From NCBI GenBank assembly GCA_013388845.1, contig JACAEN010000009.1, forward strand, positions 13,767 to 77,766: a DNA stretch of 64,000 nucleotides, written 5' to 3'. A program made the translations under genes and the position numbers. The first letter of the stretch is position 1; every line of letters begins with the position of its first letter. This DNA is from Chloroflexota bacterium (lineage in GTDB: Bacteria; Chloroflexota; Dehalococcoidia; GIF9; AB-539-J10). Below, in pieces: positions 3,137 to 63,811 of this stretch. The notes below the pieces were generated by a model. That model was not told the DNA's origin. It worked only from the letters and a program-made list of their open reading frames with translations, and ran no database searches.

Positions 3137-6100
3137 CTACCGCTCAAGCCTGAGGTTGCTTTCTCCTACTATCTTGCTCAATTCTCTAGCTAATTCAGGG
3201 CAGTAATCTATTGTTGTCTCCGGTATCTCCAGGTTAGTCACTTCATCATCGCTGACGACAGCCAAGGAAACCTTATCTTGCCCGGGATAATTTTTGAGGA
3301 TGTTCATAATCTTCTGGAGGCGTTCGATGTCTTTTTCTGCATCGTCCGATTGGTTGATATCTATCATAACATGGCGCCGCTGGGGTTCCTTTAGCACTTC
3401 CTGCCTTGCCGGGAGGAGACTTGCCTCTTGGCAGTTCAATTGTACTTCCCCGTCTCTGACCTTCACTACGCCCTTGATGGTGAGGATATTACCTTCCTGC
3501 CACAGCCCCTGCGTGCTCTCGTAGAGTTTGGGCCAGGCGATGACCTCAATACTGGCATCCAAATCCTCAATTGAGGCGACAATAAAAGGACGTTTATCTC
3601 GGGTATAGGCTTGCCGCACCGAGACCACCATCCCCGTGACCGTAACCATTTCATCAGCCATGTCGGCATTGATTTCGCCGCAGGAAATAATGCCTGGCGA
3701 GGCCGGTTCTTTGGCGAGGAAATCAAGTGGTTGAGAGAAATATACCCCAAGGAGCTCTCTTTCCCACATAAGTTTTTGCTTGACGGATACCTCTTCCGCA
3801 GCTTGCTTGAAGCCAACGCGTGGGGTTGGAGAGCTTGGAGCCAGAAAATCAAACATGCTCATTTGTCCCGATTCCTTGGCTTTTTGCTCCGTTTGGGCCA
3901 GCGCCACAATCTTATTCAAGGACTCCAGGAGTGTCTTACGGCTGCCCAAAGGGTCAAACGCACCAACTTTGATCAAGCTTTCCAATACTTTCTTATTGAT
4001 GTTACGAAGGTCAGTTCGATAGCAGAAGTCTTCTACGGACTTAAAGTCGCCCCCGGAGTTCCGGCCAGATAAGATATGCTCAATCGGAGAAAAGCCAACA
4101 TTTTTGATAGAAGCCAGTCCAAAGCGGATGGCGGAATTATTTTCATCATCCTTTTCAATGACGAAGCTGGCATAGCTCCTATTAATGTCCGGCGGTAGGA
4201 CTTTGATGCCCAGCCTCCGGCATTCAGCAATCGCTGAACGGATCTTATCCATATTATCTGAATAAGTATTGAGAAAAGCGGTCATATATTCGACGGGATA
4301 ATTTGCCTTCAGATAGGCGGTGCGATAGGCAATGAGGGCGTAGCTAACGCTGTGGGCTTTGTTGAAAGCGTAACCAGCGAAAGGCTCAATTAGAGCAAAT
4401 ATCTCCTTGGCTAATTCTGGCGATATGCCCTTTTTTCTCGCTCCGGCGATGAAATTGCGCTCCTCTTTCTTCATTACCTCAGGTATCTTCTTCCCCATAG
4501 CCTTACGAAGGATGTCAGCCTGTCCCAGACTATAGCCGGCTAGAGCTTGGGCGATAAATATTACTTGCTCCTGATAAACGATAACTCCGTAAGTTTCTTT
4601 GAGAATCTCTTTTAGAATAGGATGGGGATAACGAATAGGAGCAACACCCTGCTTGGCTTTAATAAAAGTGGGAATTTGTTCCATGGGGCCAGGGCGATAG
4701 AGCGCCACCATAGCCGCGATATCGCTAAAGCTGGTGGGCTTAAGCTCCTTGATATAGCGTCGCATCCCGGCGCTCTCCAGTTGGAAGATGCCTTTAGTTT
4801 CCCCCGAGGCAAGCAACTCAAAGGTCTTGCTGTCGTCGAGAGGAATACGCTGGAAATCTAAAGAGATTCCCCGATTTTGAGCAATAATCTCCTTAACTTT
4901 CGCCAGAATTGTCAAATTGGATAATCCTAAGAAGTCCATTTTTAACAGCCCTAGGCGGGCGATGTTCCCCATGTGAAATTGAGTCATGATCCCGACTTGT
5001 CGGGACTCACCCTTTCCCAGCAGTTGTAATGGCACATATTCTATTAAAGGCTCATGCGCGATAACCACACCGGCGGCATGGGTGCTGAAGTGCCTGACCA
5101 TCCCCTCCAATTTCTTAGCCGAGTCAATCAGGTTCCGTATGGCGTCATCCTGGTGATAAATTTCATAAAGCTCTCGACTCTGTTCTAGAGCTTTATCCAG
5201 AGTGATAGTCAACTCCAGAGGGATGAGCCGAGCTACTCGGTCAACCTGAGCATAGGGCATTCCTAGGGCTCGCCCTGTGTCTCTTATCGCGGCTCTGGCT
5301 CCCATGGTGCCAAAGGTAATAATCTGGGCCACATGGTCGGAGCCATATTTTTGGTTGACGTAAGCCAAAACTTCGTCGCGACGGTCGTCCTGAAAATCAA
5401 GGTCAATGTCCGGGAGCTCACGGCGCTCGACATTAAGGAATCGCTCGAAAACAAGGCCGTATGCCAGCGGGTCTATATCAGTGACGCCCAGACAATAAAG
5501 AGCCAAACTGGCAGCAGCGCTTCCCCGAACGCCGAAATAGATGCCCCGTTGTCTGGCGAATGAGATTATGTCCCAAACAACGAGGAAGTAATGGGCGAAC
5601 TTTGTCTTTTGGATGACATCGAGCTCATGGCTAAGCCGTTCCCTGACCTCCGAGGCGGGCTTTAGGTAGCGTTTTTCCAAGCCCTGCCAGCAAAGCTCAG
5701 CCAGGAACTCATCAGCTTTTCTGCCCGGAGGCAACTCCACACGCGGCAGATGTAGCTTGGTAAAATCCAGCTCCAGCTGACACATGTCAGCAATGGCTTG
5801 AGTATTCTCCATAGCCTGAGGTAAGTCGGGAAACAATGATTCCACCTCTTCGGGGCTTTTCAGGTAGAAGAAATCGCCAGCCATCTTCAGCCTTTTTTCA
5901 TCATACACAGAGGTATTGGTCTGGATACACAACAGAAGCTCATGGGTGGGGGCGTCTTTCTTATCAACGTAATGCACATCAAAGGTGGCGACCAAGGGTA
6001 TACTGAGCTTCGTAGATAGCGAAACAAGCTCCTGGTTGATTTGTTCTAGTTCAGGGATAGGATGTCTTTGAATCTCCAGATAGTAATCGTCGAAAACTTC

Positions 6101-6589: not shown

Positions 6590-6899
6590 TGATTAAATTA
6601 TAACATTTGAGCTGAGGGCACCAAACGAGGAATTTCTAGCTATCAAAAATTTCTTTACTATCACCATGGGCATCTTTATCTATAATCAGCCGCATAAATC
6701 CTGACACAATTTTACCGGTCAGTGCGAGCCCCGACCTATCGGGCGTGCCAAGCCGCCAGAGCCTCTATAGAGGAGCCCCTCGTGTGCTGCCGCAAAGGTG
6801 AAAGGGGGACAAGCCTCCCCCCTACGAAAGTAGGATTACTAATGGGCGATTGACAGGGAAGCGAACGACTCCTAGACTATATTTAGTTAGTCTTAGGGG

Positions 6900-9608: not shown

Positions 9609-9785
9609 AGATTATCACCTCCTTTAATTGAATCGCTACTAGTATGATATGACAGCAGGTGTTTCGTCAATAGGTATACTACCCGCTGGTATCAAGCTAG
9701 CTTTGTCCCGATAGAATCGGACAAACTCTTGAACTGGGCGATGCTTCCGAGTAAAATAGCAAATACTATGATTGGGTTTGAGCAC

Positions 9786-11072: not shown

Positions 11073-13223
11073 TTAGGATTTCTCCGTCTCGGGCGGACCC
11101 TCTTCCACCAAACCTGCTTGCTGTAGTGCCTCCATAAGGCGAGCAGCCCTAGGATAGCCAATACGAAGGCGCCGCTGTAAGAAAGAAGTGGAGATATGTT
11201 TATATTCCTGTGCCAAGCGCTTGGCTTCTTCCAAAAGAGGGTCGGGGGGAGCCCCGACTTGTCGGGGGACACCTGAGGGACGCTCAGTTACCTCATCAAA
11301 GTCAACAGAGCTCACCGCAATCTGTCGCTGGTTTCCCCAGAAATACACCAATCTCTCGATCTCAGCATCAGAAACAAAGCTTCCTTGAAGACGTTTAGGC
11401 TTGCTAGCTTCAGTAGGCATATAGAGCATGTCCCCTCTACCTAACAATTTCTCAGCACCGACCATGTCAAGGATGGTCCTGGAATCTACTTGAGAGGTGA
11501 CGGCGAAACTAATGCGGGTAGGAAAATTAGCTTTAATAAGCCCGGTAATTACATCTACTGAGGGGCGTTGTGTAGCTACGACAAGATGAATGCCTGTAGC
11601 CCGAGCCAATTGAGCCAACCGACAAAGCGTCTGTTCCACTTCGTCGAAAGCTGTCATCATCAAATCCGCCAGCTCATCAATGAAGAGCACTAGATATGGC
11701 AACCCTTCTCCAGGTGAGCGGTCTTTGTTATAACCCTCAATATTGCGTGCTCCCGCCTGAGCAAACTTACGATATCGACTATCCATCTCCTGATTAAGCC
11801 ATCTTAAAGCCTTTACCGCCTTTTCAGTATCCACAACCACGGGAGCCAGTAGATGGGGCACTCCATTAAAGGTCACTAACTCCACCCTCTTGGGGTCAAT
11901 CATGATAAATCGAACGTCGTCGGGGCTGTTGTGCAAAAGCAAGCAACAAATAATAGAATTGAGACAAACAGTTTTACCACTGCCAGTAGCTCCAGCGATA
12001 AGCAAATGAGGCATCCGGGTCAGGTCTGCGGCTATCGCCTCACCACCAGCGCCTTTACCTAAAGCGATAGCTAGTTTGGAGCGGGCTTTAATCTTCTGAA
12101 AAGCTGCGCTTTCTATGGCACTGCGAAGGGCAACTGAGCCAAACACAGTGTTAGGAACCTCAATGCCCACCACCGGTGCCCCGGGCACGGGAGCCTCAAT
12201 CCTGATGCTGGGAGCAGCTAGGGCTAAAGCTAAATCATTGGCCAAAGAAGTAATACGCTCTACCCTTACCCTGGTTTTGGATACTTCTTCTAATTTCGTT
12301 TCGTAGCTACCGTCCTTCCCCTTTTCTCTTACTTCCTTGTACTTCCTGTCCCAACCAGGCTCAACACCGAACTGTGTCACGGTAGGCCCTATGTTTACCT
12401 GCACAACCTTGGCTTCTACACCATAGCTCGCCAGAGCTTCCTCAATTAATCGAGCTCGTTGGTCAATGTCTTCCCTGTCCAATTTCACCTCAGCAGGCTT
12501 ATCCAGGATATCAATCGGTGGAAGATGCCACCCGCCGGGGGTGAGAATTGGTTCGTGCTCTGATTGCCACACGGGAGGACCCGAGCTCTCAAGGCGTTGA
12601 GTGCTCGGTGCCTCCACTCCACTAACTGCCCCTGCTTCAGAGGAGGTAGCTTCGAGAGGGACAGCCCTAGCAGGAGCTCGCCGACGAGAAATGACCCTGG
12701 CAAGATTTCGGAAGACTCTGGTCAAGAGCCGCCAGCCGTTCTGAGCAGCGTTCCAAACCTGCCGGGGGACGACAAAAATAACGCCGAGAAGGATAAGTCC
12801 GGCTACCCGGAGCGCTCCCACGGCATCAGCAGTACCTATTATCCTCTTCCCAAACTCACCCCCCAGTGTGGCTTGCCTCAAAATGCCTTCCCCAGGGAAG
12901 AAAGAAAGGATTCCCCAGACAGCAAAAGCCAGGCTAATCCCTCCCAGAACCCAATTCCACCTATGTTTCATAACCCCGACAAGTTGGGGCCGCCGCCATG
13001 CCATCCAGACCAACAAGCCCAGAGAGATACCTATTATTATCAATCCATAACCCAACAATCTGAGAATGTCATCCCATAACACGTACAGCAACACTACTAT
13101 TATGACAATTAAGATAAGCCTGCGTACCACTGGTGAAGCGATGAAGCTGAAGAATCGCTTCCACGCTGGCCGGCTTTCTTTGGCCTTCTGCCTCGGCTTA
13201 GACTTACTTCCTGCTTTAGACAC
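11073..13223 (-). CDS. ftsK: DNA translocase FtsK/SpoIIIE
   Basis: N-terminal TM segments, a Walker A/B motor (GATGSGKT; DELADLM), and a C-terminal gamma winged helix (SFLQRRLRIGYPRAARLMEAL). Confidence 0.9.
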   Translation of the reverse strand: MSKAGSKSKPRQKAKESRPAWKRFFSFIASPVVRRLILIVIIVVLLYVLWDDILRLLGYGLIIIGISLGLLVWMAWRRPQLVGVMKHRWNWVLGGISLAFAVWGILSFFPGEGILRQATLGGEFGKRIIGTADAVGALRVAGLILLGVIFVVPRQVWNAAQNGWRLLTRVFRNLARVISRRRAPARAVPLEATSSEAGAVSGVEAPSTQRLESSGPPVWQSEHEPILTPGGWHLPPIDILDKPAEVKLDREDIDQRARLIEEALASYGVEAKVVQVNIGPTVTQFGVEPGWDRKYKEVREKGKDGSYETKLEEVSKTRVRVERITSLANDLALALAAPSIRIEAPVPGAPVVGIEVPNTVFGSVALRSAIESAAFQKIKARSKLAIALGKGAGGEAIAADLTRMPHLLIAGATGSGKTVCLNSIICCLLLHNSPDDVRFIMIDPKRVELVTFNGVPHLLAPVVVDTEKAVKALRWLNQEMDSRYRKFAQAGARNIEGYNKDRSPGEGLPYLVLFIDELADLMMTAFDEVEQTLCRLAQLARATGIHLVVATQRPSVDVITGLIKANFPTRISFAVTSQVDSRTILDMVGAEKLLGRGDMLYMPTEASKPKRLQGSFVSDAEIERLVYFWGNQRQIAVSSVDFDEVTERPSGVPRQVGAPPDPLLEEAKRLAQEYKHISTSFLQRRLRIGYPRAARLMEALQQAGLVEEGPPETEKS

Positions 13224-15552: not shown

Positions 15553-15631
15553 CTAATACGATGGTAGCATATCTACCTTTGTCGGTCAATTTGGGCTCTT
15601 CTTAGACCCCGATAAGTCGGGCTCAACTTAT

Positions 15632-16432
15632 TTACTCTTCCTCCTCATCCTCATCCTGCTCCCAAATAGGCTCGGTGAATTGGTCAATAAATTCAGCCGT
15701 AACTCTCTTCGCTATTCTATCCATCTCCTCGTCCACCTGCTCAGCCAGATGACTAAGCTCGGTCAAGTCCAGTGTAATTCCCAACATTTTGATCAGAACA
15801 CGAAGCACAGCTAGGGAAGCTTTGGGATTTGCTATTTGTGTGGCATACGCCGGCACTTCCCCCAGCAAGCAAATGCCCTCCATCCCCCTTTCCTTGGCCA
15901 TTCCCAATATCAATCCGTTCAATCCAGCGATGCGAAGGCTGCCTCTCAGAATCACATTATGTTTGCTCAACTCGTCAATTAAGTCAGAAGTTGTCGCTGC
16001 TCCCCAAACCCTTATCTCTTCACTATGGTGGATGCGTGTTACTGCAGCAGCACAACTATACACCCTGGCCACCCTAAGCCTTTGCGCGACATCCAACACA
16101 CAGTTAACCAGTTCGTATCCTTTGAAACTAGGCTGTTCTTCACCGATAAAAATCACCAAGCTTTTATCCCGATCAGATCGGGACTGCCAATAATAAAACT
16201 TGCTCTCAGGAAAACGAGGGCTTTCCACCACGTTGTCTTTGACTGTGACTCCCATTGGTTCAAAAAAGTGAATAGGTTCAATCTCCCCTATTTCCGTAGC
16301 ATTTAGCTTCTCCACAAGATACTTCGCTGCGGTTAGGGAAACGTCGCCAATGCCTGGCCAGGAGGCGAGCATGGCACAATTCTTAGGGCGCGGTTGTTTA
16401 TAAAGTTTATAAAGCCTTATTATGTCTTTCAT
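15632..16432 (-). CDS. PAC2-family (proteasome-assembly-chaperone-like) protein with an acidic C-terminal tail
   Basis: LASWPGIGDVSLTAAKYLVEKL resembles the PAC2-family N-terminus. 266 aa. C-terminus DEDEEEE. Confidence 0.45.
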   Translation of the reverse strand: MKDIIRLYKLYKQPRPKNCAMLASWPGIGDVSLTAAKYLVEKLNATEIGEIEPIHFFEPMGVTVKDNVVESPRFPESKFYYWQSRSDRDKSLVIFIGEEQPSFKGYELVNCVLDVAQRLRVARVYSCAAAVTRIHHSEEIRVWGAATTSDLIDELSKHNVILRGSLRIAGLNGLILGMAKERGMEGICLLGEVPAYATQIANPKASLAVLRVLIKMLGITLDLTELSHLAEQVDEEMDRIAKRVTAEFIDQFTEPIWEQDEDEEEE

Positions 16433-16751: not shown

Positions 16752-16860
16752 CTGTCATTGCGAGCGAAGCGTGGCAATCTCATTGGCTAAATTCCAAACA
16801 AATTGTAGTGCGACCTTTTAAGGTCGTACAATCCTGCCCTTACACAAGGCTGAAGCCTCG
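16752..16860. repeat. Repeat/hairpin block: a copy of the GTCATTGCGAGCGAAGCG dispersed repeat followed by nested palindromes (TGTAGTGCGACC...GGTCGTAC...GCCTCGCACTACA)
   Basis: Read directly from the sequence. This is the same repeat word seen at 28100-28168, 61794-61857 and 62398-62450. Confidence 0.6.
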
Positions 16861-17964: not shown

Positions 17965-18042
17965 CTGTTTGGCAAAAAGAACACCCCACCTGATTATGCT
18001 TTACTTCAAAGGGAAGATATGGTATAAAAGCCACAAGGGAAA

Positions 18043-18539: not shown

Positions 18540-18565
18540 CCAGATTCACTTTCAGAAGCCAAGGC

Positions 18566-18652: not shown

Positions 18653-18870
18653 CTGACCAGCTTCGCGACAATAAGAAGCCCCCTGCAATGGTTTGTGTAG
18701 TGAGGGAACAAAACAAGTTAATGTGCAACATTCCAGGCTTTTGTTGCACGAGCTGCACATTCTGGACGATTGTTCAACATTTTGAGGTTCGCTATAGCCA
18801 AATTTGGGCACACCAAAGCGTAGCCGTATTCCGCTATTATCAGATGATATTATATGAAGTCCCTGCCCTG

Positions 18871-21048: not shown

Positions 21049-21218
21049 GCCCCCTCCTTTGGAACACCACCGGGCTGCACATGGGCGCCTCTCATGCCCC
21101 CAAATGACAAAACTCCAGTTCCAGCCAGATTGTAGCACAGCGTTGAAGAAAAGACTATCATACGTCATACCATCTGCAAGTTGGGTCACACAATAGTCAG
21201 GATTGTTGGCCCACCATA

Positions 21219-22939: not shown

Positions 22940-23160
22940 ATACTAATTTCTAAATCCGAAACAAATTCAAAGCACAAGTGACCAAATGATCAAAACATTT
23001 AACACTTTGAATTTCGTATTTGTTTAGTATTTAGTGCTTAGGGTTTGGGATTTGGAGTGGAGGCGCTTGTGTGATTTGGGCTTTAGGCAGAGGGGTCTTG
23101 TTTTGGGCTTACGATACGAATTATAATTTACTACCTTTAACTACAACAGAAAGGAGAAAG

Positions 23161-24676: not shown

Positions 24677-24773
24677 CGTACTACGTTAAATCCTAAATTC
24701 CAAACTCTAATCTCTAAACAATTTCAAAATCCAAATTGTTTAGTATTTAGATATCAGTGCTTAGTGCTTCTAG

Positions 24774-25683: not shown

Positions 25684-27823
25684 TTAATTCCCCCTTTCTT
25701 GTTACACTTACTACGTTCCACACTGAATAAATTCTAGACATTATTTTGCTTAGCTGAGCTACACTTTTCACCTCTAAGGTAAAATACAACGTGACACTCT
25801 CATCACGGTGATTACCCATGCTTACCTCGCTGAGGTTAACCCCCTCTTCAGCTATAATAGCACTAATATCCCGAACAAGGCCGACTCTATCCCAGGCATC
25901 GACCTGAATCGTCACAGGGTAAACCTGCGCCACATCGCCCCACTCTACTTCGATCAGCCTTTCCTTCTCTTCTTCATGGATAATATTAGGGCAATCCCTC
26001 CGGTGCACACTGATACCCCGGCCTTGAGTAATATACCCAATAATCTCATCCCCCGGCAAGGGATGACAGCAGTTAGCCAAACGAGTAAGCAAGTCCCCCA
26101 CCCCCAATACGTTAATACTCACAGGGCTGAGCTTTCGTGGAGGCAGAACTTCAACCCCCTCCCCAGTTGACTCCAGTTCTCCGCTTAATTTAAGCACTAC
26201 TTGGGAAGAATGGATGCTACCGTTGCCCAGCGCAGCAAAAAGGTCATCTGCGCTGTCATAGCCGAGTAGATGCGCTACCTCGTCAACACCGGGCAAACCG
26301 AGGCCTAACTTCTTAAGCTCCCTATCCCAAATTTGCTTGCCCGCTTCAATGCATTGACTTCGTTCTTGCTTAGCAAACCATTGTCGGATTTTGGTTCGTG
26401 CATGAGACGTCTTAATATAGCCGAGCTCGGGATTAAGCCAATCCAGACTTGGGCCTTTATCTATTTTGCTGGCCACGATTTCCACTACATCGCCGTTCCT
26501 AAGAGTGTAATTCAAGGGTTCCAGCCTTCCGTTCACTTTCGCTCCGATACACCTATAGCCCAAGTCCGTATGAATTCGAAAGGCGAAATCTAGAGGCGTA
26601 GCGCCTTTGGGCAACTCCTTTATTTCCCCTTTCGGAGTATACACAAATACGCGGTCTGTAAGAACATCGGTTTTAATAGACTCCAGAAATTCCTCACTAT
26701 CAAGCTCCTCCCTCCAATCACCAATCTGCTGCAGCCAAGCTACTTCGTCCTTAAATCGCTCACTCGCTTTCCCTTCCTTATAGAGCCAGTGAGCCGCCAC
26801 CCCATATTCGTTGACCCGATGCATGTCATAAGTCCGAATTTGTATTTCTAGCGGTGTTGTACCCTGACACATTACCGTAGTATGCAAAGCCCGATAGCCG
26901 TTATCCTTGGGATTAGCAATAAAATCGTCGAACTCTTCAGGTATAGGACGCCAGAAATTATGAATTACACCTAGTGCCTTATAACAATCTGAAACCGAAT
27001 CCACTAATACGCGTAAAGCAAAAAGGTCATGGATATCCCCAAAAGTCTTACCTTGCGCATCATACTTGCCCATCTTTTGATATATGCTGTAAATATGTTT
27101 TGGCCGGCCGTAAACCTTAGCTTTTATACCGGCTTTGTCTAATTCCTGGCCTAGTATCTCACTAACTTCATTGATGAACCCTTCCCTCTCGGCTCGCTTT
27201 CCAGCTACTAAGCGAGCAATCCGATGGTACACCCGAGGCTTCAGATAGCGAAAAGCTAGATCCTCTAATTGCCATTTCGCTTGCCTCATACCTAAACGGT
27301 GCGCCAAGGGAGCATATATCTCCAAGGTCTCTTGAGCAATAGCTCGCCGTTTCTCTGCCGGTAGAACCCCTAGTGTACGCATGTTATGTAACCTGTCTGC
27401 CAATTTGATGAGAACCACCCGCAGGTCTTCAGCCGAAGCCATGAGCATCTTGCGTAAGTTCTCCGCCTGAACCTTCGATTCTGCTTCCCCCGTTCGAGCT
27501 CGACTAGCAAGCTTGTTCAGCTTCGTAACTCCATCAACAAGTTTAACCACTTGTGAACCAAACTTGGACTCGATCTCGCCTAATGATATACCACAATCCT
27601 CGGGGACATCGTGCAATAAGGCCGCAGCCAAGGTTTCAGCGTCAAGGTGAAACTCAGCTAAAATCATAGCTGTATTTAAAGGATGTTCTAGATAGGGCTC
27701 CCCCGTCATACGTACTTGCCCCTGGTGAGCTTTGGCAGCGAATTCGTAGGCTGCTTTAACCAGAGCTACCTTATCTTCGGGCAAGTAAGTGCTAGCCTGT
27801 TCTATAAGCGCATTACCGTCCAT
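25673..27823 (-). CDS. rel: Bifunctional (p)ppGpp synthetase/hydrolase (RelA/SpoT homolog)
   Basis: HD hydrolase domain (HLDAETLAAALLHDVPED), synthetase domain, and TGS and ACT C-terminal domains. 716 aa. Confidence 0.9.
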   Translation of the reverse strand: MDGNALIEQASTYLPEDKVALVKAAYEFAAKAHQGQVRMTGEPYLEHPLNTAMILAEFHLDAETLAAALLHDVPEDCGISLGEIESKFGSQVVKLVDGVTKLNKLASRARTGEAESKVQAENLRKMLMASAEDLRVVLIKLADRLHNMRTLGVLPAEKRRAIAQETLEIYAPLAHRLGMRQAKWQLEDLAFRYLKPRVYHRIARLVAGKRAEREGFINEVSEILGQELDKAGIKAKVYGRPKHIYSIYQKMGKYDAQGKTFGDIHDLFALRVLVDSVSDCYKALGVIHNFWRPIPEEFDDFIANPKDNGYRALHTTVMCQGTTPLEIQIRTYDMHRVNEYGVAAHWLYKEGKASERFKDEVAWLQQIGDWREELDSEEFLESIKTDVLTDRVFVYTPKGEIKELPKGATPLDFAFRIHTDLGYRCIGAKVNGRLEPLNYTLRNGDVVEIVASKIDKGPSLDWLNPELGYIKTSHARTKIRQWFAKQERSQCIEAGKQIWDRELKKLGLGLPGVDEVAHLLGYDSADDLFAALGNGSIHSSQVVLKLSGELESTGEGVEVLPPRKLSPVSINVLGVGDLLTRLANCCHPLPGDEIIGYITQGRGISVHRRDCPNIIHEEEKERLIEVEWGDVAQVYPVTIQVDAWDRVGLVRDISAIIAEEGVNLSEVSMGNHRDESVTLYFTLEVKSVAQLSKIMSRIYSVWNVVSVTRKGELSVS

Positions 27824-27885
27824 CTAGTTCATAATACTGCAATAGCAAAAGTAACGCAAATTATTGGTTAAATTCCAAATATCAA

Positions 27886-27902
27886 TCCCGATTTAATCGG
27901 GA
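27886..27902. repeat. CCCGA-N-TCGGG micro-hairpin, copy TCCCGATTTAATCGGGA
   Basis: Perfect 6-bp stem with a 5-nt loop. One member of a family of 8 or more such hairpins in the window. Confidence 0.7.
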
Positions 27903-28010
27903 CAAAGCTCTAAACTGTTTTGGTCATTTGATATTGTTTAGGATTTAGATATTAGAATTTAGGATTTCCTCAGATCCGCGACGTGAATGAATTCATTACT
28001 TCGTGCCTCG

Positions 28011-28026
28011 TCCCGATTTATCGGGA
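28011..28026. repeat. CCCGA-N4-TCGGG micro-hairpin, copy TCCCGATTTATCGGGA
   Basis: Perfect palindrome, read directly from the sequence. Confidence 0.7.
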
Positions 28027-28099
28027 CTCACAACAACTTCTGTGTCAGCATCTCTGCAAACCCCAATAATAAATAATATGGTGTAACTACTCACCCTAA

Positions 28100-28168
28100 T
28101 GTCATTCTGAGGAAGCATAGCGACCGAAGAATCTGAGAGATCCTTCGCTTCGCTCAGGATGACAAGAG
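28100..28168. repeat. Inverted-repeat, MITE-like copy of the GCTTCGCTCAGAATGACAAG repeat family (TGTCATTCTGAGGAAGC...GCTTCGCTCAGGATGACA)
   Basis: The two arms are near-perfect reverse complements. The word recurs at 16752, 61794, 62398 and 63669. Confidence 0.7.
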
Positions 28169-28221
28169 CAGGCTGGATAGTTACAATATGGTAAACTAAC
28201 AGACAGACAAGGAGGATTTCT

Positions 28222-29472
28222 TTGCCTAAAGCACCTCGGGGGACATTCGATATCTTGCCCCAAGAGCATATCTACTGGAAATACGTAGAGGGAAAGGCTA
28301 CTTCCTTATGCCAGCTCTATGGTTACCAACCATTGAGCACGCCGATATTTGAGGACGCCCAGCTTTTCATTAAAACTGTGGCTGGAGGGACAGATATCGT
28401 TGACAAGGAAATGTACGTCTTCGCAGACAAAAGTGGGCAAGAATTGGCTCTAAGAGCCGAGGGAACAGCGCCAGTTTGCCGAGCTTATATAGAGCATGGC
28501 TTATTCAATCTGCCCCAACCGGTAAAGTTGTATTATATTGGACCAGCCTTTAGATATGAACGCCCTCAAGCAGGAAGATATCGCCAGCATCACCAATTTG
28601 GCTTTGAGGCACTGGGAGAGGCCGACCCGGCCCTTGACGCTGAAGTAATTGAAATGGCCCGACGATTCTTTGATTCGCTAGGGCTCTCCCGACTTTCTAT
28701 TCACCTCAACAGCATTGGCTGTAAGCTTTGCCGACCCGGGTATTTAGAAGTACTGAGACAGCATTATTCTGGTTACATAGACCATCTTTGCCCTGACTGC
28801 AAAGCCAGGCTGGTCAGAAACCCGCTTCGCCTGCTGGATTGCAAGAAAACCTCTTGTCAGGAGATAGCCAAAACTGCGCCGAAAATTACCGATTATCTAT
28901 GCCCTGAATGCCAACTTCACTTCCAAAGCGTTCAGAAATATTTAGGGGCCATGAACATCCCCTTTCATTTGAATCCTAGACTGGTGCGTGGCCTGGATTA
29001 TTACACTAGGACAGTGTTCGAGGTGGAACCTCGAGAAAAAGGAGGACAAAGCACGCTCGGTGGCGGTGGTCGCTATGATGACCTCATTGAGTCATTAGGA
29101 GGGAAACCGACTCCGGCAGTGGGCTTTGCCGCGGGCTTAGAAAGAATAATATTGAATCTCAAGAAACAAAAAACAGATATTCCGGCATTGCCTGAGCCTG
29201 ATGCTTTCATCGCCTATATGGGAGAAGAAGCCAAGATCGAGGCACTGAAGATTGCCTCGGAGCTACGGAAAGCGGGCATCGCTGTTATCATGGCTACAGG
29301 TGATAAGAGCCTGAGAGGACAGCTCAGACAAGCTAATTCCTTAGGCATTGCCTACGCCCTTATCCTCGGCAAACAAGAGCTCAGCAAGCGAAGCATCATG
29401 TTGCGGGACATGAGCAGCCGAGAACAGAAAATCATCCCTCTGGCTGAAATAGCCAAAATACTCAAACCCTGA
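28222..29472 (+). CDS. hisS: Histidyl-tRNA synthetase
   Basis: Class II aaRS motifs (FRYERPQAGRYRQHHQFG; GGGRYD; FAAGLERI). Confidence 0.9.
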   Translation: MPKAPRGTFDILPQEHIYWKYVEGKATSLCQLYGYQPLSTPIFEDAQLFIKTVAGGTDIVDKEMYVFADKSGQELALRAEGTAPVCRAYIEHGLFNLPQPVKLYYIGPAFRYERPQAGRYRQHHQFGFEALGEADPALDAEVIEMARRFFDSLGLSRLSIHLNSIGCKLCRPGYLEVLRQHYSGYIDHLCPDCKARLVRNPLRLLDCKKTSCQEIAKTAPKITDYLCPECQLHFQSVQKYLGAMNIPFHLNPRLVRGLDYYTRTVFEVEPREKGGQSTLGGGGRYDDLIESLGGKPTPAVGFAAGLERIILNLKKQKTDIPALPEPDAFIAYMGEEAKIEALKIASELRKAGIAVIMATGDKSLRGQLRQANSLGIAYALILGKQELSKRSIMLRDMSSREQKIIPLAEIAKILKP

Positions 29473-29564
29473 TTTCATCGGGATCAAAACTAACACCTAT
29501 AGTTTCAGATATGGTATAATATAGACGTATTGTCATTATTATTGACTAGGGATGAAAACCTAAA

Positions 29565-33368: not shown

Positions 33369-34745
33369 CTACACAGTTTGGTATGACTTCCTATAATCTT
33401 TTTGTGAATTAAGTTTCTCTTTGATTTCCTCGATTTGGTCGGAAAGGTTAGGATTGGTGCTCACTGCACTAGCTATTTTTTCGTAGCCGTGCAGAATTGT
33501 GGCATGGTTTCTGCCGCCTAATTCTTTGCCGATCTCAGTTAAGGAGTAGTTATAGCCCTCGCGCATAAGATAGATGGCTATGTGCCGTGCCAGGCTGGTT
33601 TTCCGGTCTCTCTTTTTGGCGATTAGTTCTTCAGTTGCCAGGTTGAAGTGGTCTGCTACCGCCCGTAAGAGCAACTTTATGTCTTGTCTAGGGGGCGTGC
33701 CTGTTAATAACTTGTTCACTGTTTCAGGGGTAATCTTGGTGCCACTTAATTTAGCCTGGGCAGCTAGATATATCAAAGCACCTTCAAGCTGGCGGACGTT
33801 CCCGCACACTTTCTCGGCGACAATGTGCAGCACCCCGTCCAAGTCTGAAATCATCATTGTTTCTGCTTTAGCCCGCAAGATGTTCAGGCGTGTTTCAAAG
33901 TCGGGTGGTTGTATGTCCACGACAAGCCCCCCCTCCAGTCGTGATTTTAGCTTACTGCTAAGTGGCTGCATGTCTTTGGGAGCACAGTCAGCGGTGATGA
34001 CGATTTGACGGTTATTATTGTACAGCTCGTTGAAGGTCTGGAAGAAACATTGCAAGGTTTGTTTCTTATCGATCAAGAAGTGAACATCGTCAAATAGGAA
34101 GGCATGGATATTTCTGAATTTGCTGCGGAACTTGTCAACCTGGTTTTCTCTCACAGCTAATACGAATTCATTGGCGAACTGTTCCGCGGTAGTATAGGTC
34201 GCTTGCAGCCCGTTGTTTGTCGTTAGATGACCGATAGCATGTAGCAAATGAGTCTTGCCCTGTCCGGTGCTGCTGTGGATGAAAAGAGGGTTATAACTGC
34301 TTCCTGGGTTTTCTGCTACTTCTAAAGCGGCAGCATAAGCTAAACGGTTAGAATCGCTGACAACAAAGTTGTCAAAGGTATACCTTGGATTAAATCTATA
34401 CTGTGTAGCTCTGCTACTTGTCCCGCCGTCAGTTTGATTAGCCAAAGGGCTAGCCCCGGCAAGTCCGGGCTGTTCATGATTTTGGACCACGAATTGGACA
34501 TCGACATCCCTACCCGCGATATCCACTAAGGTCTTCCTCACCAGAGGATAGAGGCGTTTAGATAGCCATTCAGCGGCAAAAATGCTCGGGACACTGACGA
34601 CAAAGGTATCATCTTGGCAGCTTACGCCCTCGCTATTGCCAAGCCAAGTAGTGTAATTTGCCTTGCTAACCTGAATTTGAAGCTTGTCTAGGGCCTTCTT
34701 CCAGATTTCTTTTGCTGATTCCAATTTATCCCCACCCGACAACAC
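33369..34745 (-). CDS. dnaA: Chromosomal replication initiator DnaA
   Basis: AAA+ Walker A (SSTGQGKTHLLHAIGH) and a C-terminal DnaA-box binding domain (...KTSLARHIAIYLMRE...). Confidence 0.9.
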   Translation of the reverse strand: MLSGGDKLESAKEIWKKALDKLQIQVSKANYTTWLGNSEGVSCQDDTFVVSVPSIFAAEWLSKRLYPLVRKTLVDIAGRDVDVQFVVQNHEQPGLAGASPLANQTDGGTSSRATQYRFNPRYTFDNFVVSDSNRLAYAAALEVAENPGSSYNPLFIHSSTGQGKTHLLHAIGHLTTNNGLQATYTTAEQFANEFVLAVRENQVDKFRSKFRNIHAFLFDDVHFLIDKKQTLQCFFQTFNELYNNNRQIVITADCAPKDMQPLSSKLKSRLEGGLVVDIQPPDFETRLNILRAKAETMMISDLDGVLHIVAEKVCGNVRQLEGALIYLAAQAKLSGTKITPETVNKLLTGTPPRQDIKLLLRAVADHFNLATEELIAKKRDRKTSLARHIAIYLMREGYNYSLTEIGKELGGRNHATILHGYEKIASAVSTNPNLSDQIEEIKEKLNSQKDYRKSYQTV

Positions 34746-49453: not shown

Positions 49454-51601
49454 ATGGCAAAAACTCGGATAGTAAAAAGCGTGTGTGGGCTGTGCGTGGG
49501 TAATTGTGGTGTGTTGGTTACTTTAGAAAACGGCAAGGCGGTTGACATAAAAGGAGACCCCAATAGTCCATTAAACCGAGGTGCGTTATGTCCCATAGGT
49601 CGGGCCTCTTTGGAATATCTTTATCACCCCGACCGGTTAACTCATCCCTTGAGAAGAGTTGGTGCCAGGGGCGAAGGTAAGTGGCAGCAAATATCGTGGG
49701 ACGAAGCACTCAATGTGACGGCTGAGGCCCTGAATAAAGTGAAGCAGGAATATAGCCCAGAGGCAGTAATGATGGTGCAAGGGTCGGCAAAGGGCTCAAT
49801 GGACACCCATCTGGTGCGGTTGGCTAATGCCTTTGGCACGCCCAATGTGGTCTGCGCTGAGTACGTTTGTCATATGCCAAGAGTGGTGGCTGCTGAATTG
49901 ACCTTTGGCTTCTTCCCCGGTGCTGACTATGGATACCCGCCGGCCTGTGTTATATCTTGGGGTGCCAACGACGCTGAGACGCATTTTTCCAGACACAAAG
50001 GCCTTGTCCAGGCAGTGAAGAAAGGGGCAAAGCTGATTGCCATAGACCCCTGGGAAACAGAGGCTACTAAGATGGCAGACCTCTGGCTGCGAGTCAGACC
50101 AGGCTCAGACTTGGCCCTGGCTCTGGCGATGATAGATGTAATAGTCAACGAGGGGCTTTATGATGAAGATTTCGTGGATAAGTGGACGGTTGGTTTTGAT
50201 AAGCTTAGGGGCCATGTTCAGGACTATCGCCCCGAGAAGGTGGCGGAAATAACTTGGGTTCCAGCAGACCAAATTGTAAAGGCAGCCAGATTGTATGCCA
50301 CCACCAGGCCGGGGCATATAGAGTGGGGTAATGCTCTTGACCACAACGTGAATAGCTTTCAAGCCTCCCGTGCTATCTCCATCCTGATGGCCATAACTGG
50401 TAACCTGGGCGTGCCCGGCGGAGAAATAGAATCACGTGGCTCGGGCTACCGTTTTGGAGATTCTGAGTCCTCAGAGAGTGGTGTTTTAGGGCGATGGTCG
50501 TCTCAAATGGAACTTCGCAATATGATACCGAGGGAGAAACGACAAAATAGACTGGGAGCCGACTTAAATATGTTACCAGATGTGCGCTATGTTCTCCCTC
50601 ACTCCGTCATAAAGTCTATTTTGAAAGGAGAACCTTATCGTATTCGCGCCGCTTTTGTTCAGGCATCCAATCCTCTGTCCTGCTGGCCTAATGCTCAGGA
50701 GGCGTACCAGGCATTCCAGAGGCTAGATTTTCTAGCTGTATCTGATATGTTTATGACGCCGACAGCGGCTTTAGCTGACATACTGTTTCCGGTAGCCAGC
50801 TATCTCGAGTTTGATGGTGTTCAGATGCCGCCAAATGGCGCGGTGGTTCAAGTTCAGCGCAAGGTTGCCCAGATTGGCGAGTGCCGTTCGGATCATGAGA
50901 TCATAAATGAGCTGGCAAAAAGGCTGGGGCTGGCAGAGTATTTTTGGGATAGTATTGATGCTTTTTGGGATGCGATTTTGGAACCAGTAGGCTTGACGTT
51001 TAGGGAGTTCAAGAAAATAGGTCTGTTTATTGGTAAAGAGAAACAGCCCAACAAGTACCGAAAATACGAACAAAATGGTTTTCGAACACCTTCAGGCAAG
51101 GTGGAGTTATATTCCAGCCGGCTGAAAGAGTGGGGATTTGACCCCTTACCCGTCTACTATGAGCCGCCTGAGACACCTTATAGCGACCCTGAACTGGCTA
51201 AAGAGTATCCGTTAGTATTTATCACTTGGAAATGGAAACCCTACCGCCACAGCGGAGGTCGGCAAATAGCTTCTTTACGAAATAGCCACCCCGAGCCAAT
51301 TATTATGATTCACCCCGAAACGGCAAATAAACTGGGAATAAAGGAGGGCGACTGGGTATACATTGAGACCAGGAGAGGTCGGATAAGACAGAAAGCTACT
51401 TTAACCGCCGGTATTGATCCCAGGGTAGTCGGCGTTGATTATGGTTGGTGGTTTCCTGAGAAAGGGCTATCTGAACTATATGGTTGGGCAGAATCCAATG
51501 TTAACATTCTGACAAATGATAAGCCACCATTTAACCGGGAGATGGGGTCTGCTAATTTAAGGGGTTTTCTGTGCAAGGTCTACCCCGATAAATCGGGGTA
51601 A
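49454..51601 (+). CDS. Molybdopterin (bis-MGD) oxidoreductase-family catalytic subunit with an N-terminal 4Fe-4S motif
   Basis: CGLCVGNCGV...C motif, then molybdopterin oxidoreductase and dinucleotide-binding blocks. 715 aa. No twin-arginine signal. Confidence 0.75.
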   Translation: MAKTRIVKSVCGLCVGNCGVLVTLENGKAVDIKGDPNSPLNRGALCPIGRASLEYLYHPDRLTHPLRRVGARGEGKWQQISWDEALNVTAEALNKVKQEYSPEAVMMVQGSAKGSMDTHLVRLANAFGTPNVVCAEYVCHMPRVVAAELTFGFFPGADYGYPPACVISWGANDAETHFSRHKGLVQAVKKGAKLIAIDPWETEATKMADLWLRVRPGSDLALALAMIDVIVNEGLYDEDFVDKWTVGFDKLRGHVQDYRPEKVAEITWVPADQIVKAARLYATTRPGHIEWGNALDHNVNSFQASRAISILMAITGNLGVPGGEIESRGSGYRFGDSESSESGVLGRWSSQMELRNMIPREKRQNRLGADLNMLPDVRYVLPHSVIKSILKGEPYRIRAAFVQASNPLSCWPNAQEAYQAFQRLDFLAVSDMFMTPTAALADILFPVASYLEFDGVQMPPNGAVVQVQRKVAQIGECRSDHEIINELAKRLGLAEYFWDSIDAFWDAILEPVGLTFREFKKIGLFIGKEKQPNKYRKYEQNGFRTPSGKVELYSSRLKEWGFDPLPVYYEPPETPYSDPELAKEYPLVFITWKWKPYRHSGGRQIASLRNSHPEPIIMIHPETANKLGIKEGDWVYIETRRGRIRQKATLTAGIDPRVVGVDYGWWFPEKGLSELYGWAESNVNILTNDKPPFNREMGSANLRGFLCKVYPDKSG

Positions 51602-57330: not shown

Positions 57331-57347
57331 TCCCGATTAAATCGGGA
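57331..57347. repeat. CCCGA-N5-TCGGG micro-hairpin, copy TCCCGATTAAATCGGGA, in the pyrK/carB spacer
   Basis: Perfect 6-bp stem, read directly from the sequence. Confidence 0.7.
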
Positions 57348-61213: not shown

Positions 61214-62394
61214 TTCTCCCTCACCATCTCCAGAAATCTTTCAAATAGATACATGTTGTCCCAAGGGCCAGGGGAGGCTTCGGAGTGGTATTGAATGGAT
61301 AGAATGGGCAACTCTCGGTGGCGGAGACCCTCCACCGTGCCGTCGTTTAAGCTTATGTGGCTGACCTCCAGTCCCCCTTTCAAAGTATCGGCGTGTATGG
61401 CGTAGCCATGATTTTGAGCGGTGATATAGACTCTGCCCGTAGCTAAATCCCGCACAGGATGGTTGCCCCCACGATGCCCGAATTTGAGCTTAAAAGTCTG
61501 GGCCCCCAAGGCTTTACCTATGAGCTGATGCCCCAGGCATATGCCCATTATCGGCTTTTTACCTATAAGATTTCTTACCGTCTCCGCTATGTCATCGAGA
61601 AGGGCAGGGTCACCGGGGCCCGGGGAGAGAACAATGCCATCGGGATTCAGGGCTAGGATGTCTTTTGCTGAAGCGGTGCATGGGATGGCGGTTGCTTGGC
61701 AGCCCAAGTGACTCAGGATGCGCAATATGTTGTATTTCAAGCCATAGTCGATAACCAAGATATGAGATTGCGGAGCCTGTTCCGAGCGTGAGCGAGGAAT
61801 CTCGCCCAGGCTGCTTCGGCTTCGCTTCGCAACCGCTGACGCTCCTCGCAATGACAGATAAGGCAGGGGCACAGTGGCAGGCGCACGGCATTGCCATTCA
61901 TATGCCTTCTTGGTGCTAACCTGACGAACAAAATTAACAGAATCATATCTGGGTAAGGCCTTTAGCTCTTCTGACGCCTCTTCAATGGTCATCTCCGAAC
62001 TGAGAATGCCCATCATCACTCCAGTTGACCTCAGGTGCCGAGTTAAGGCACGGGTATCTATGCCGCTGATGCCAGGAATGCCATAAGCCAGTAAGAACTC
62101 GTGCAAAGTGCGAGTGCTTTGCCAGTGACTAGGGCGAGGGCAATATTCTCGGACCGCTAAACCTCTGACCTGAATTTGCTGGGATTCAAAATCGGAGTCG
62201 TTGATGCCATAGTTGCCAATCAAAGGATAGGTAGGGACCAGGATTTGACCAGCGAAGGACGGGTCGGTAAGCATTTCCTGATAACCGGCCATGCTGGTAT
62301 CGAAAACTACCTCACCATAGGTAGTAGCCTGAGCGCCAAAGGCCTCGCCTTCGTAAACCGAGCCGTCTTCGAGAACTAAAATCGCCTTCTTAAC
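61210..62394 (-). CDS. carA: Carbamoyl-phosphate synthase small subunit (glutamine amidotransferase). Start at MVKKAILV; the ORF-track extension to 62460 is translated repeat DNA.
   Basis: GATase triad region (GICLGHQL; ...HGYAI...) and an N-terminal CPSase small-chain domain. Carries a ~43-aa in-frame insertion at 61762-61890. Confidence 0.9.
   Translation of the reverse strand, partial: VKKAILVLEDGSVYEGEAFGAQATTYGEVVFDTSMAGYQEMLTDPSFAGQILVPTYPLIGNYGINDSDFESQQIQVRGLAVREYCPRPSHWQSTRTLHEFLLAYGIPGISGIDTRALTRHLRSTGVMMGILSSEMTIEEASEELKALPRYDSVNFVRQVSTKKAYEWQCRAPATVPLPYLSLRGASAVAKRSRSSLGEIPRSRSEQAPQSHILVIDYGLKYNILRILSHLGCQATAIPCTASAKDILALNPDGIVLSPGPGDPALLDDIAETVRNLIGKKPIMGICLGHQLIGKALGAQTFKLKFGHRGGNHPVRDLATGRVYITAQNHGYAIHADTLKGGLEVSHISLNDGTVEGLRHRELPILSIQYHSEASPGPWDNMYLFERFLEMVREK
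61762..61890. repeat. Copy of the GCTTCG...CGCAATGACAG repeat family inserted in frame in the carA inter-domain linker (encodes ...CRAPATVPLPYLSLRGASAVAKRSRSSLGEIPRSRSEQAPQS...)
   Basis: The nucleotide word GCTTCGGCTTCGCTTCGC...CTCGCAATGACAG matches the other copies. The encoded peptide sits between YEW and HILVIDYG, where carA homologs have only a few residues. That homolog comparison is from memory. Confidence 0.6.
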
Positions 62395-63811
62395 CATGAG
62401 ATTCTTCGCTTCGCTCAGAATGACAAGGAGTGCGCTCAGAATGACAAGGGATGGAGGCAAAACGCCTTCTTAGTAAGTCATCCATATAAACTATCCTGCC
62501 ATTTGCTATGGTGGCCATTACCTTGCCCTTAAACCTATAGCCATCGTAGGGAGTGTTTTTGCCTTTGGAGGCGAAATTGTGGCTATCCACTACCCATTCC
62601 CGGTCAGGGTCAAATATGGTGATATTAGCTGGGGCGCCTGCCTTTAAGGTGCCCAGTTCACCATTTCGACCAATGACCTTCGCTGGCTCATAAGTTAGCT
62701 TAGAAATTAGCTGGGCAAGGCTTATTTCGCCGCGGTGCACCAAGCTCATAAGGCAGCCAAGAGCGGTTTCCAAGCCGCTGATGCCAAAAGCCGCTAGCTC
62801 TAGCGGACAGTTTTTATCTATCAGGGTATGTGGTGCGTGGTCGGTGGCGATAGCATCGATTACGCTGTCTCTAAGTCCTTTAATTAAGGCTTCGACATCC
62901 TCTTTAGTGCGCAGGGGCGGGTTTACTTTGGCATTGGTATCAAAGGGTTTGTTGGGCGACTCGCCTGCAATTCTCTCTTCGGTTAACGTCAGGTGGTGGG
63001 GTGTGACCTCAGCGGTTACTGAAATCCCTTCTTCCTTGGCGCGGCGAATGAGCTCTACAGAGCCTTTGGTGCTGACATGGGCAATATGAAGTCTGGCCTT
63101 GGTCAACTTGGCCAGAATCAAGTCGCGGGCTACCATGACCTCTTCAGCAGCGGCGGGAATTCCTTTCAGCCCCAACTTGGCAGATACCTGACCTTCATTT
63201 ATGACTCCATTGTTGCTCAGCGTCTTATCCTCACAGTGGTCAATGATTGGCAAGCCCAGGTCTCGGCTATACTCTAGGGCACGACGCATAAGCTGCGAGT
63301 TTGCTACAGGGTTACCATCGTCGCTGAAGCCAACCACTCCAGCTCGAGCCAGTGCGGCCATATCAGTTAATTCCTCACCTCGTCTACCGTTGGTGATACA
63401 GCCTATGGGAAGAACAGCAACCAAGCCATCTTGGCTCGCTTTTCGCTTCAACCAATCTACAGCAGCCGGGTCATCTAAAGGAGGTTCGGTATTTGCCATA
63501 CAACAGACGGTGGTAAAACCGCCTATGGCGGCGGCTTTTGTGCCTGTGGCGATGGTTTCCTTATCCTCAAAACCTGGCTCTCGGAGGTGGCAGTGAAGGT
63601 CTATAAAGCCGGGGCAGATGACCAGTCCTGTGGCATCGAGATTCTGTGCTGTCTCTTGGCTATGCTCAGGGCTTCGGCTCAGAGTGACAATGCCTCCTAT
63701 CTGCACAATCTTGCCCCCAGCAATAAGCAAGTCACCAACCCGGTCTATGCCCTGGCTGGGGTTGATTATACGGCCACCACGGATAAGCAGAAACATAGCC
63801 TTTTTATTCAT
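62390..63811 (-). CDS. pyrC: Dihydroorotase (class I). The real start is possibly at MFLLIRGG. The C-terminal ~20 aa are repeat-derived.
   Basis: IDLHCHLREPG metal-binding motif and ...DHAPH... motif. A small repeat-derived insert (GGCTTCGGCTCAGAGTGACAATG, 63669-63694) sits in the N-terminal region. Confidence 0.85.
   Translation of the reverse strand: MNKKAMFLLIRGGRIINPSQGIDRVGDLLIAGGKIVQIGGIVTLSRSPEHSQETAQNLDATGLVICPGFIDLHCHLREPGFEDKETIATGTKAAAIGGFTTVCCMANTEPPLDDPAAVDWLKRKASQDGLVAVLPIGCITNGRRGEELTDMAALARAGVVGFSDDGNPVANSQLMRRALEYSRDLGLPIIDHCEDKTLSNNGVINEGQVSAKLGLKGIPAAAEEVMVARDLILAKLTKARLHIAHVSTKGSVELIRRAKEEGISVTAEVTPHHLTLTEERIAGESPNKPFDTNAKVNPPLRTKEDVEALIKGLRDSVIDAIATDHAPHTLIDKNCPLELAAFGISGLETALGCLMSLVHRGEISLAQLISKLTYEPAKVIGRNGELGTLKAGAPANITIFDPDREWVVDSHNFASKGKNTPYDGYRFKGKVMATIANGRIVYMDDLLRRRFASIPCHSERTPCHSERSEESHG
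62398..62450. repeat. Tandem copy of the repeat family (GAGATTCTTCGCTTCGCTCAGAATGACAAGGAGTGCGCTCAGAATGACAAGGG) at the pyrC/carA junction
   Basis: Read directly from the sequence. In two frames it supplies the C-terminal tail of pyrC (...SIPCHSERTPCHSERSEESHG) and the spurious N-terminal extension of carA. Confidence 0.7.

Follow-up and report, generated by a model that had tools for sequence, protein, structure and literature searches.

Hairpin repeats with a 5′ CGTC tag have been described as a class of repetitive extragenic palindromes (REPs) in which the tag is often TGTC, head-to-head dimers and intragenic copies occur, and no transposase was known (Di Nocera et al. 2013, PMC3733652). NTS is the Neisseria member of these CGTC/TGTC-tagged REPs, a class then thought to be without an enzyme (PMC3733652). 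Ssn proteins (cd10448) are site-specific single-strand DNA nucleases that bind NTS/SRM hairpins and restrict meningococcal transformation; SsnA requires the NTS hairpin to be single-stranded DNA for binding, cuts just upstream of it and does not bind RNA, and repeats of this kind flank 71% of ssnA homologues, gene and repeats being arranged repeat–gene–repeat, like an insertion sequence (Chenal et al. 2025, Nat Commun 16:2388, PMC11893778). Binding and cutting of a repeat by its cognate Ssn have been demonstrated for the Neisseria and Wolbachia pairs only, and the SRM search pattern, HGTCWYN(0-2)YYVSBRHN(0-5)WNVSBRGN(0-2)RNCYNB, is an operational tool derived from 29 genomes (PMC11893778). Here we analysed 64,000 nucleotides (nt) of a Chloroflexota bacterium (Dehalococcoidia, GIF9, AB-539-J10; GCA_013388845.1, contig JACAEN010000009.1, positions 13,767–77,766), hereafter the window, which carries two dispersed hairpin repeats: a long repeat built from a 27-nt unit and a much shorter palindrome, the micro-hairpin. 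The long repeat is probably a set of orphan NTS/SRM-type hairpin repeats with a TGTC head, and the micro-hairpin is nested in the same system.

Two hairpin repeats in the window

All copies of the long repeat reduce to one oriented 27-nt unit, (Y)TGTC-ATTCT-GA-GCGAAGC-GA-AGAAT-CTC, composed of a GTC head, a covarying stem of 5 base pairs (bp), two G-A internal loops, an exchangeable tip hairpin and a CTC tail. In the window, as in 128 copies elsewhere, the head reads (T/C)GTCAT, with a tag that is mostly TGTC, and units stand either singly or as head-to-head pairs with a variable spacer (28101–28163 and 61779–61855 in the window). The tip hairpin takes many unrelated sequences, frequently with a second G-A-flanked layer. 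When a relaxed pattern without a pairing requirement was run over 863 kb of unrelated genomes, 201 matches had 5/5 stem pairs, compared with 1 in a mirror control. Among the 26 distinct 27-mers, 94.4% of cells were paired, versus 14–49% when the partners were slid along, and all seven base pairs of the unit showed changes on both sides (examples from the stem are TTCT/AGAA, TCCT/AGGA, CCCT/AGGG, TGCT/AGCA and TTCC/GGAA).

In the window, GCTTCGCTCAGAATGACAAG with up to three mismatches was found four times, against 0.01 expected. The five sites at which the original prediction placed the long repeat all hold related copies (16754–16781, the 28101–28163 pair, 61779–61855, 62398–62445 and 63638–63688), although it overlooked two degenerate units, 6718–6754 and 27989–28037, each with a micro-hairpin at its tip. 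The two arms that it saw forming a hairpin at 28100–28168 do so in folding calculations: segment 28090–28180 folds as one long hairpin (−32 to −35 kcal/mol, z = −2.8 to −3.5). The copies are as follows, bit scores being those of covariance-model matches.

6718..6754, + strand: degenerate unit GTCAGTGCGAG-CCCCGACCTATCGGG-CGTGCCAAGCC upstream of dnaE, from comparison with units of relatives
16754..16781, + strand: single unit of the TTGC/GCAA subtype in the divergent PAC2–pyrF spacer (30.6 bits)
27989..28037, − strand: degenerate unit with micro-hairpin 28012–28025 as its tip, aligning with GAGATTGCTTCG..CTCGCAATGAC of relative L157 and with the L122 orthologue
28101..28135, + strand: left arm of the doublet, unit with an enlarged degenerate tip (21.7 bits, E = 0.0055)
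28137..28163, − strand: right arm of the doublet, canonical 27-mer GTCATCCTGAGCGAAGCGAAGGATCTC, fitting the cross-phyla pattern (46.9 bits)
61779..61855, no strand assigned: inverted unit pair, in frame in the inter-domain linker of carA (match at 61779–61803, + strand)
62398..62445, − strand: canonical unit (62398–62424) and truncated 5′ half (62428–62445) (47 bits)
63638..63688, − strand: enlarged-tip unit, read in frame within the N-terminal loop of pyrC (GIVTLSRSPEHSQETAQNL)

Full units are often preceded by tandem 21–24-nt 'stutters' of the 5′ half (GTCATTCTGAG plus 10–13 nt, one to three repeats), as at 62428–62445 in the window and, elsewhere, in L202 (6389–6500 and 8024–8210), L236 and L239; Chloroflexota, cyanobacteria and other genomes have them, with a mirror copy on the opposite side where the units form a doublet. 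Beside the 16754 unit, at 16804–16867, unrelated palindromes headed GTAG form an inverted pair (TGTAGTGCGACCTTTTAAGGTCGTAC ... GCCTCGCACTACA), the sole copy in the window, which looks like a classical REP doublet of the type associated with REP-associated tyrosine transposases (RAYTs).

The micro-hairpin is a lineage-specific core palindrome, (G)TCCCGAY-loop-RTCGGGA(C). The pattern CCCGAN{4,5}TCGGG has 10 exact matches in the window (starting at 4991, 6730, 11253, 15608, 16168, 27887, 28012, 46057, 51584 and 57332), with 0.08 expected from dinucleotide shuffles of the window, and none of the 100 shuffles reached 10; composition thus does not account for the density that the original prediction had noted, and the copies listed there are real. 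That list missed the exact copies at 16168 and 51584, together with four variants found by looser searches: 9708 (CCGA..TCGG), 29467–29483 (CCCTGATTTCATCGGGA), 34455 (CCCGGCAAGTCCGGG) and 53399. The micro-hairpin is confined to the lineage, with 9 matches in 866 kb of diverse loci compared with 11 in the 64-kb window. The copies outside the units listed above, all given without strand, are these.

4991..5004: in dnaE, in frame, read SRQVG
9708..9720: variant GTCCCGATAGAATCGGAC, 9 nt ahead of the start of the phosphoglycerate mutase gene
11253..11266: in ftsK, in frame, read PRQVG, about 60 residues before the C terminus in a poorly conserved-looking stretch
15608..15621: UDG–PAC2 spacer
16168..16182: within the PAC2-family gene
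27887..27901: TCCCGATTTAATCGGGA, exact match (DNA fold −6.5 kcal/mol, z = −3.5)
29467..29483: variant CCCTGA-TTTCA-TCGGGA at the 3′ end of hisS, providing the stop codon
34455..34469: variant in dnaA
46057..46071: last codons of a ParA-like open reading frame (ORF), upstream of folD
51584..51597: final codons of a molybdopterin oxidoreductase gene
57332..57346: spacer after ORF 57360–60638

The last ORF is read as carB by size and position alone, and the micro-hairpin after it is, with its flanks, 84% complementary over 44 nt to 27877–27920, forming an inverted repeat.

Nested insertions and in-frame copies

For comparison we used 80 metagenome loci of relatives (HisS 77–93% identical); the sequence of relatives searched for units amounts to 949 kb and comes from a few genomic neighbourhoods, not whole genomes. 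It contains 65 unit heads versus 6.8 expected, and 75% of the units lie within the 11% of sequence outside long ORFs, in line with the intergenic sharing of the two repeats proposed earlier. The relA–hisS spacer, compared in 77 relatives, is 'empty' (74–83 nt) in 45 of the 77, and every longer one has its extra DNA at one identical point, after gcaaatta. The window spacer measures 398 nt, of which about 320 nt are insertions nested within one another at a single site, with no target duplication. There are two insertion lineages, A and B, and the window carries both in tandem:

27864..28185, no strand assigned: composite insertion, type A (about 27864–28080) followed by type B (about 28083–28185)

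The micro-hairpin at 27887 is absent from the otherwise identical type-A sequence of L171 and L177, which read ccaaatatcaa-aattc-aaagctc at this point, so that the window has gained 13 nt; the micro-hairpin at 28012 forms the tip of a degenerate unit, and the orthologues of this unit in L157 and L122 have other tip hairpins. The repeats are insertion-polymorphic among relatives. The 1289-nt and 2090-nt relA–hisS spacers of L125, L197 and L198 contain ORFs, and inspection of their translations by eye revealed no recognizable transposase. A third dispersed repeat, AT-rich (TTTAGGATTTAGAKATTRGAAWTTAGGATTTC) and always intergenic, occurs in the window at 11040–11082, 23012–23054, 24728–24770 (inverted) and 27926–27968; the last copy is a further insertion nested in the type-A block and common to L122, L171, L177 and L181.

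The same comparison revealed how the two repeats are joined. Filled and empty orthologues differ as GC-GAA-GC to GC-CCCGACTTGTCGGG-GC (the filled tip being present in the orthologues of the 16754 unit in L139, L142, L145, L158 and L179), GCC-GCAAT-GGC to GCC-CCGATATAATCGG-GGC, and AGC-CTG-GCA to AGC-CCCGATAAAATCGGG-GCA. As the rule is constant, what changes is the loop of a small GC hairpin that was already there: it is replaced, without target duplication. Loops were also found flipped between relatives at a given orthologous site (AA versus TT; TGAAA versus TTTCA). The micro-hairpin forms the tip of a unit at no fewer than eight independent loci, among relatives for example as GTCATTGCGAG-CCCCGACTTGTCGGGG-CGTGGCAATCTC and GTCATTCTGAG-GAGTCCCAATAAATCGGGACAA-CGAAGAATCTC; it also replaces the loops of other small GC hairpins, and units are themselves nested in other units and in outer palindromes. 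The two repeat families of the original prediction are thus both real but not independent, the micro-hairpin being a module in the tip of the long unit.

Two observations concern further layers of nesting. In Acidobacteriota and one contig binned as Saccharimonadales, a unit doublet lies within the outer palindrome ACAGGCTGCGGAAAAA...TTTTTCCGCAGCCTGT (L005, L019, L023, L042, L077, L079, L095 and L111), and the near-identity of composites of about 150 nt between two phyla points to horizontal transfer or, alternatively, to an error in binning. Another hairpin family (CCCTCTCCCTTAAAGGAGAGGG, read SPLKGEG..GEG) replaces the interior of the long repeat at the pyrC–carA junction of L203 and in the carA linker of L206, with the outer ends kept.

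Many copies lie inside genes. The units at 62398–62445 encode the C-terminal tail of pyrC and abut the carA ATG, and in five of the five genomes examined (the window and four relatives) a unit adjoins the carA start codon with pyrC reading through it. Relatives have units at the same three pyrC/carA places, but in another subtype, number or interior: in some, the unit interior in the pyrC–carA region is an unrelated CCCTCTCCC..GGAGAGGG hairpin; the CarA linker holds a single unit (LSLRGASATKQSH), two of them or another repeat in an alignment of CarA; and the site in the pyrC N-terminal loop takes a different form in each relative. The micro-hairpins that had been placed inside dnaE and ftsK are indeed there, both in frame. 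The DnaE loop is 4–5 residues longer than in the Taq and Escherichia coli DnaE structures, exactly at the micro-hairpin. The ftsK stretch is presumably a linker. At the hisS 3′ end, empty orthologues read AAAC-AAG-GTCA, and the filled form is 12 nt longer, with its loop flipped relative to L122; in dnaA, orthologues read TAGC-TGATA-GTTG (empty) or TAGC-CCCGACAAGTCGGG-GTTG, and the filled gene is 9 nt longer and in frame; in relatives, obg carries a micro-hairpin and is 12 nt longer. The repeats reshape the essential proteins CarA, PyrC and HisS, probably also DnaE and FtsK, as well as DnaA in the window and Obg in relatives, and this protein variation arises in an uncultured, Dehalococcoidia-like lineage of Chloroflexota. 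Read-through into units also leaves annotation artefacts, recurring false peptide tails of which RDSSLRSE, VILSEAKNL and RFFASLRMT are examples.

Distribution of the unit and its association with GIY-YIG genes

The long repeat is not restricted to this locus: the exact 27-mer (Y/R at the covarying position) is present in at least 120 contigs. The matches listed include Acidobacteriota, Nitrospirales, Chloroflexota, Bacteroidales, Clostridia, Verrucomicrobiota, Planctomycetota, several proteobacterial classes and Saccharimonadia, and closed or isolate genomes are represented by Calothrix PCC 7716, Helicobacter marmotae and long-read chromosomes of Nitrospirales and Granulicella. Plasmids with the unit were those of filamentous cyanobacteria only (up to 10 places in 52 kb). 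In IMG/VR, 28 contigs carry the unit; phage genomes yielded no convincing one. Full-text searches found no open-access paper that prints the DNA words of the unit or the peptides it encodes.

Elsewhere, the identical 27-mer accompanies ssn-like genes. On the viral contig L230, an ORF of 114 residues with a GIY-YIG domain is bracketed by two inverted units, and at the DNA level units flank a GIY-YIG gene on both sides in L235, L236 and a Planktothrix plasmid. Among the 120 best homologues of the L230 ORF, 63 end in RDSSLRSE and a stop, which is the reverse unit in frame, its TGA serving as stop codon; another 40 finish in VSF or SSL and a stop, consistent with the forward unit on tails of only 3–4 residues; and two more carry other unit peptides, so that 63–105 of the 120 end inside a unit. 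The unit-flanked genes encode about 95–115 residues with GIY-YIG (PF01541) as the sole domain match, and we infer by homology that they are of the cd10448 type. Searches of PDB and NCBIfam with the L230 ORF gave no match; the L230-type protein is 48% identical (E = 6e-17) to the single N. gonorrhoeae ssnA homologue, which sits amid seven NTS repeats. On the Planktothrix agardhii plasmid NZ_LR882964.1 (17650–20316; L239), an ssn-like gene and unit arrays lie between an MmeI-type restriction–modification gene and drmA, within a defence island (drmA being the DISARM helicase gene).

The unit has properties of both published classes. Like an SRM, it is a hairpin-forming repeat of 20–50 nt with a conserved, oriented 5′ head (HGTCWY), and in other genomes the identical 27-mer flanks single-domain GIY-YIG genes; like a CGTC-tagged REP, it has an unpaired tag, a stem-loop, a short CTC tail and mostly head-to-head pairs. 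The long repeat thus appears to work like the SRM and CGTC-tagged REPs and, by gene association, to belong with them.

The window itself is ordinary housekeeping DNA. It includes dnaA (33369–34745), and a replication origin is therefore probably nearby. Between 17800 and 21700 the G+C content falls to 0.41; this region contains three ORFs without a Pfam match (18440–18811, 18871–19896 and 20353–21189), an ORF with an excisionase-like HTH_17 domain (21219–21698) and a 90-nt direct repeat (17878–17967 versus 18566–18655, 76% identical), and may be a small integrated element. ORF 7741–8808, also without a Pfam match, contains three tandem 33-nt repeats (8290–8388).

Origin of the repeats and comparison with known systems

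If the long repeat is an orphan population of the NTS/SRM kind, its hairpins are presumably bound by nucleases of the Ssn family, given the homology of the proteins encoded beside it elsewhere. The repeats would be selfish DNA that spreads when replication, repair or uptake leaves DNA single-stranded: an Ssn-type nuclease cognate to them, with its gene in another part of the genome or formerly in the lineage, would nick beside the hairpin, and repair or template switching could then copy a donor hairpin into the loop of a recipient hairpin. Most copies would be neutral passengers, tolerated in spacers and flexible protein loops. Several points weigh against this interpretation. The activity demonstrated for Ssn proteins is the cutting of single-stranded DNA (PMC11893778) rather than the movement of repeats, so that the copying step is hypothetical. 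We found no ssn/GIY-YIG gene in the 64-kb window or in L237, nor in some 1 Mb of loci from relatives, drawn from a few neighbourhoods and not from whole genomes. The published SRM pattern has no match in the window or in the 949 kb of relatives; it misses the canonical 27-mer and matches NTS. The canonical unit folds weakly as DNA (−1.9 kcal/mol, not better than shuffles), and as the energy of the bare 27-mer is unremarkable, its structure rests on covariation. Some micro-hairpins stand alone, without a GTCAT head, and many taxon names of unit-bearing contigs are metagenome-bin labels.

Chance or base composition as the origin of the repeats was ruled out by the shuffles and the mirror control. 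For the micro-hairpin, a serious rival is passive spreading, in which hairpins are copied and homogenized by template switching or gene conversion during replication without any dedicated enzyme. The junctions are replacements of the loop in small GC..GC hairpins without target duplication, same-site loop flips are a classic sign of strand switching in palindromes, the subtype of a unit differs between orthologues as though it had been overwritten, and a micro-hairpin at the tip raises the predicted stability of a unit (about −3.5 to −11.6 kcal/mol). Homology of only 2–4 nt is available for such switching, however, and neither the exact 27-mer across phyla nor its tie to one nuclease gene family is explained; passive copying could also merely be the step that follows an enzymatic nick. 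As a full account of both repeats we regard it as possible but doubtful. We consider it unlikely that the 27-nt unit and the Ssn-like gene together make up a mobile element that is active, spreads horizontally and works by a new type of mechanism. In such an element, the GIY-YIG enzyme would nick beside the hairpin, the element or the hairpin alone would be copied into other hairpin loops without target duplication, and the micro-hairpin would be a minimal derivative. If true, this would account for a 27-mer that is exact across phyla, for hairpins nested like Russian dolls and for the tandem 5′-half stutters.

Selection by the host for RNA hairpins (terminators, mRNA stabilizers or translational coupling), whose spread would reflect function, is equally compatible with the covariation and would suit the intragenic copies, which must be transcribed, and the unit beside the carA start in all five genomes, where pyrC reads through. 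We nevertheless find it improbable: 45 of the 77 relatives manage without copies between relA and hisS, no T-run accompanies most micro-hairpins on the strand that is transcribed, the doublets are symmetric, and SsnA has no affinity for RNA (PMC11893778). An Rfam scan of the whole window at gathering thresholds returned two tRNAs only; a scan of 27800–28260 gave no match with E < 1, and there is no Rfam model for the unit. The terminator role suggested by the original prediction is unlikely at the focal site, where the copies lie between the divergently transcribed relA and hisS and only one micro-hairpin has a T-run, on the wrong strand. That prediction had also called the repeats REP/MITE-like (MITE, miniature inverted-repeat transposable element) and proposed a cognate RAYT/IS200-like partner. 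They are REP-like as dispersed hairpin repeats, and mobilization as REP/REPIN elements by a RAYT, an IS200-like Y1/HUH transposase, would account for short imperfect palindromes, for inverted doublets like REPINs and for the enrichment of units between genes, REPs likewise being known with in-frame intragenic copies. But the unit starts with GTCA and lacks a 5′ GT[AG]G tag, Pfam scans of the 40 window ORFs found no transposase, HUH/Y1 included, ORF clustering found no family recurring within 400 nt of the unit among the 120 listed copies of diverse genomes, the identical unit flanks GIY-YIG genes, and no RAYT was found flanked by CGTC/TGTC repeats (Di Nocera et al. 2013, PMC3733652), all of which makes a RAYT very improbable. 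The MITE half of the label fares worse still. Doublets of 69–115 nt with inverted ends, and the Acidobacteriota copies inside an outer palindrome, resemble deletion derivatives of DDE-transposase insertion sequences with terminal inverted repeats and target-site duplications, but such duplications are absent at the resolved junctions, no transposase lies nearby, single units are as common as pairs, and the internal covariation points to a folded single strand; an origin as classical MITEs is scarcely credible.

Interpreted as an orphan population of the NTS/SRM kind, the long repeat links one subfamily of the CGTC/TGTC-tagged REPs, described without a dedicated enzyme, to the Ssn nucleases described in 2025, and indicates that the published SRM motif misses a subfamily present in many phyla. 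The filled and empty sites, resolved to the base as loop replacement without duplication, make the copying step testable.

Among known systems, the small dispersed repeats (SDR) of Nostoc, attributed to Elhai et al. (2008), are reportedly mobile elements of about 20–27 nt, nested in hairpins and larger repeats and without a known enzyme; unlike the unit, they are said to have different sequences and to occur in cyanobacteria only, and we know of no nuclease association described for them. REP/REPIN–RAYT systems (Bertels & Rainey 2011; Quentin et al. 2018, PMC6006769) share with the unit small hairpins and inverted doublets and, on the Ssn interpretation, recognition as single-stranded DNA and non-autonomous copies that depend on a nuclease gene present once and flanked by repeats in its turn; they differ in their GT[AG]G tag and HUH-tyrosine enzyme, and REPs are lineage-specific, whereas the 27-mer is exact across phyla.

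The CGTC-tagged repeats, including Rickettsia RPE-4 and RPE-6, are closer. They have in common with the unit a frequent TGTC tag, a predominance of head-to-head dimers, a short unpaired tail and in-frame copies in genes, replication genes such as dnaE included; their stems are continuous over 8–9 bp with loops of 4–5 nt, in contrast to the unit stem, which is broken by G-A loops, and they were reported in five phyla, Chloroflexota not among them, with no dedicated enzyme described (PMC3733652). The NTS/SRM repeats (PMC11893778) resemble the unit in their oriented GTCAT head, hairpin and ..ATC tail, in single or clustered copies and in a shorter core palindrome beside the full oriented motif, as with dRS3 and NTS in Neisseria, and the identical 27-mer flanks GIY-YIG genes in the same repeat–gene–repeat layout. 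Many window copies are intragenic, compared with 2% of NTS (PMC11893778), and the unit has a 5-bp stem, two G-A loops and a GCGAAGC mini-hairpin where NTS/SRM have a GC stem of 8–9 bp. Given this other stem design and the failure of the published pattern to match it, the unit represents a distinct subfamily rather than a plain member of the SRM.

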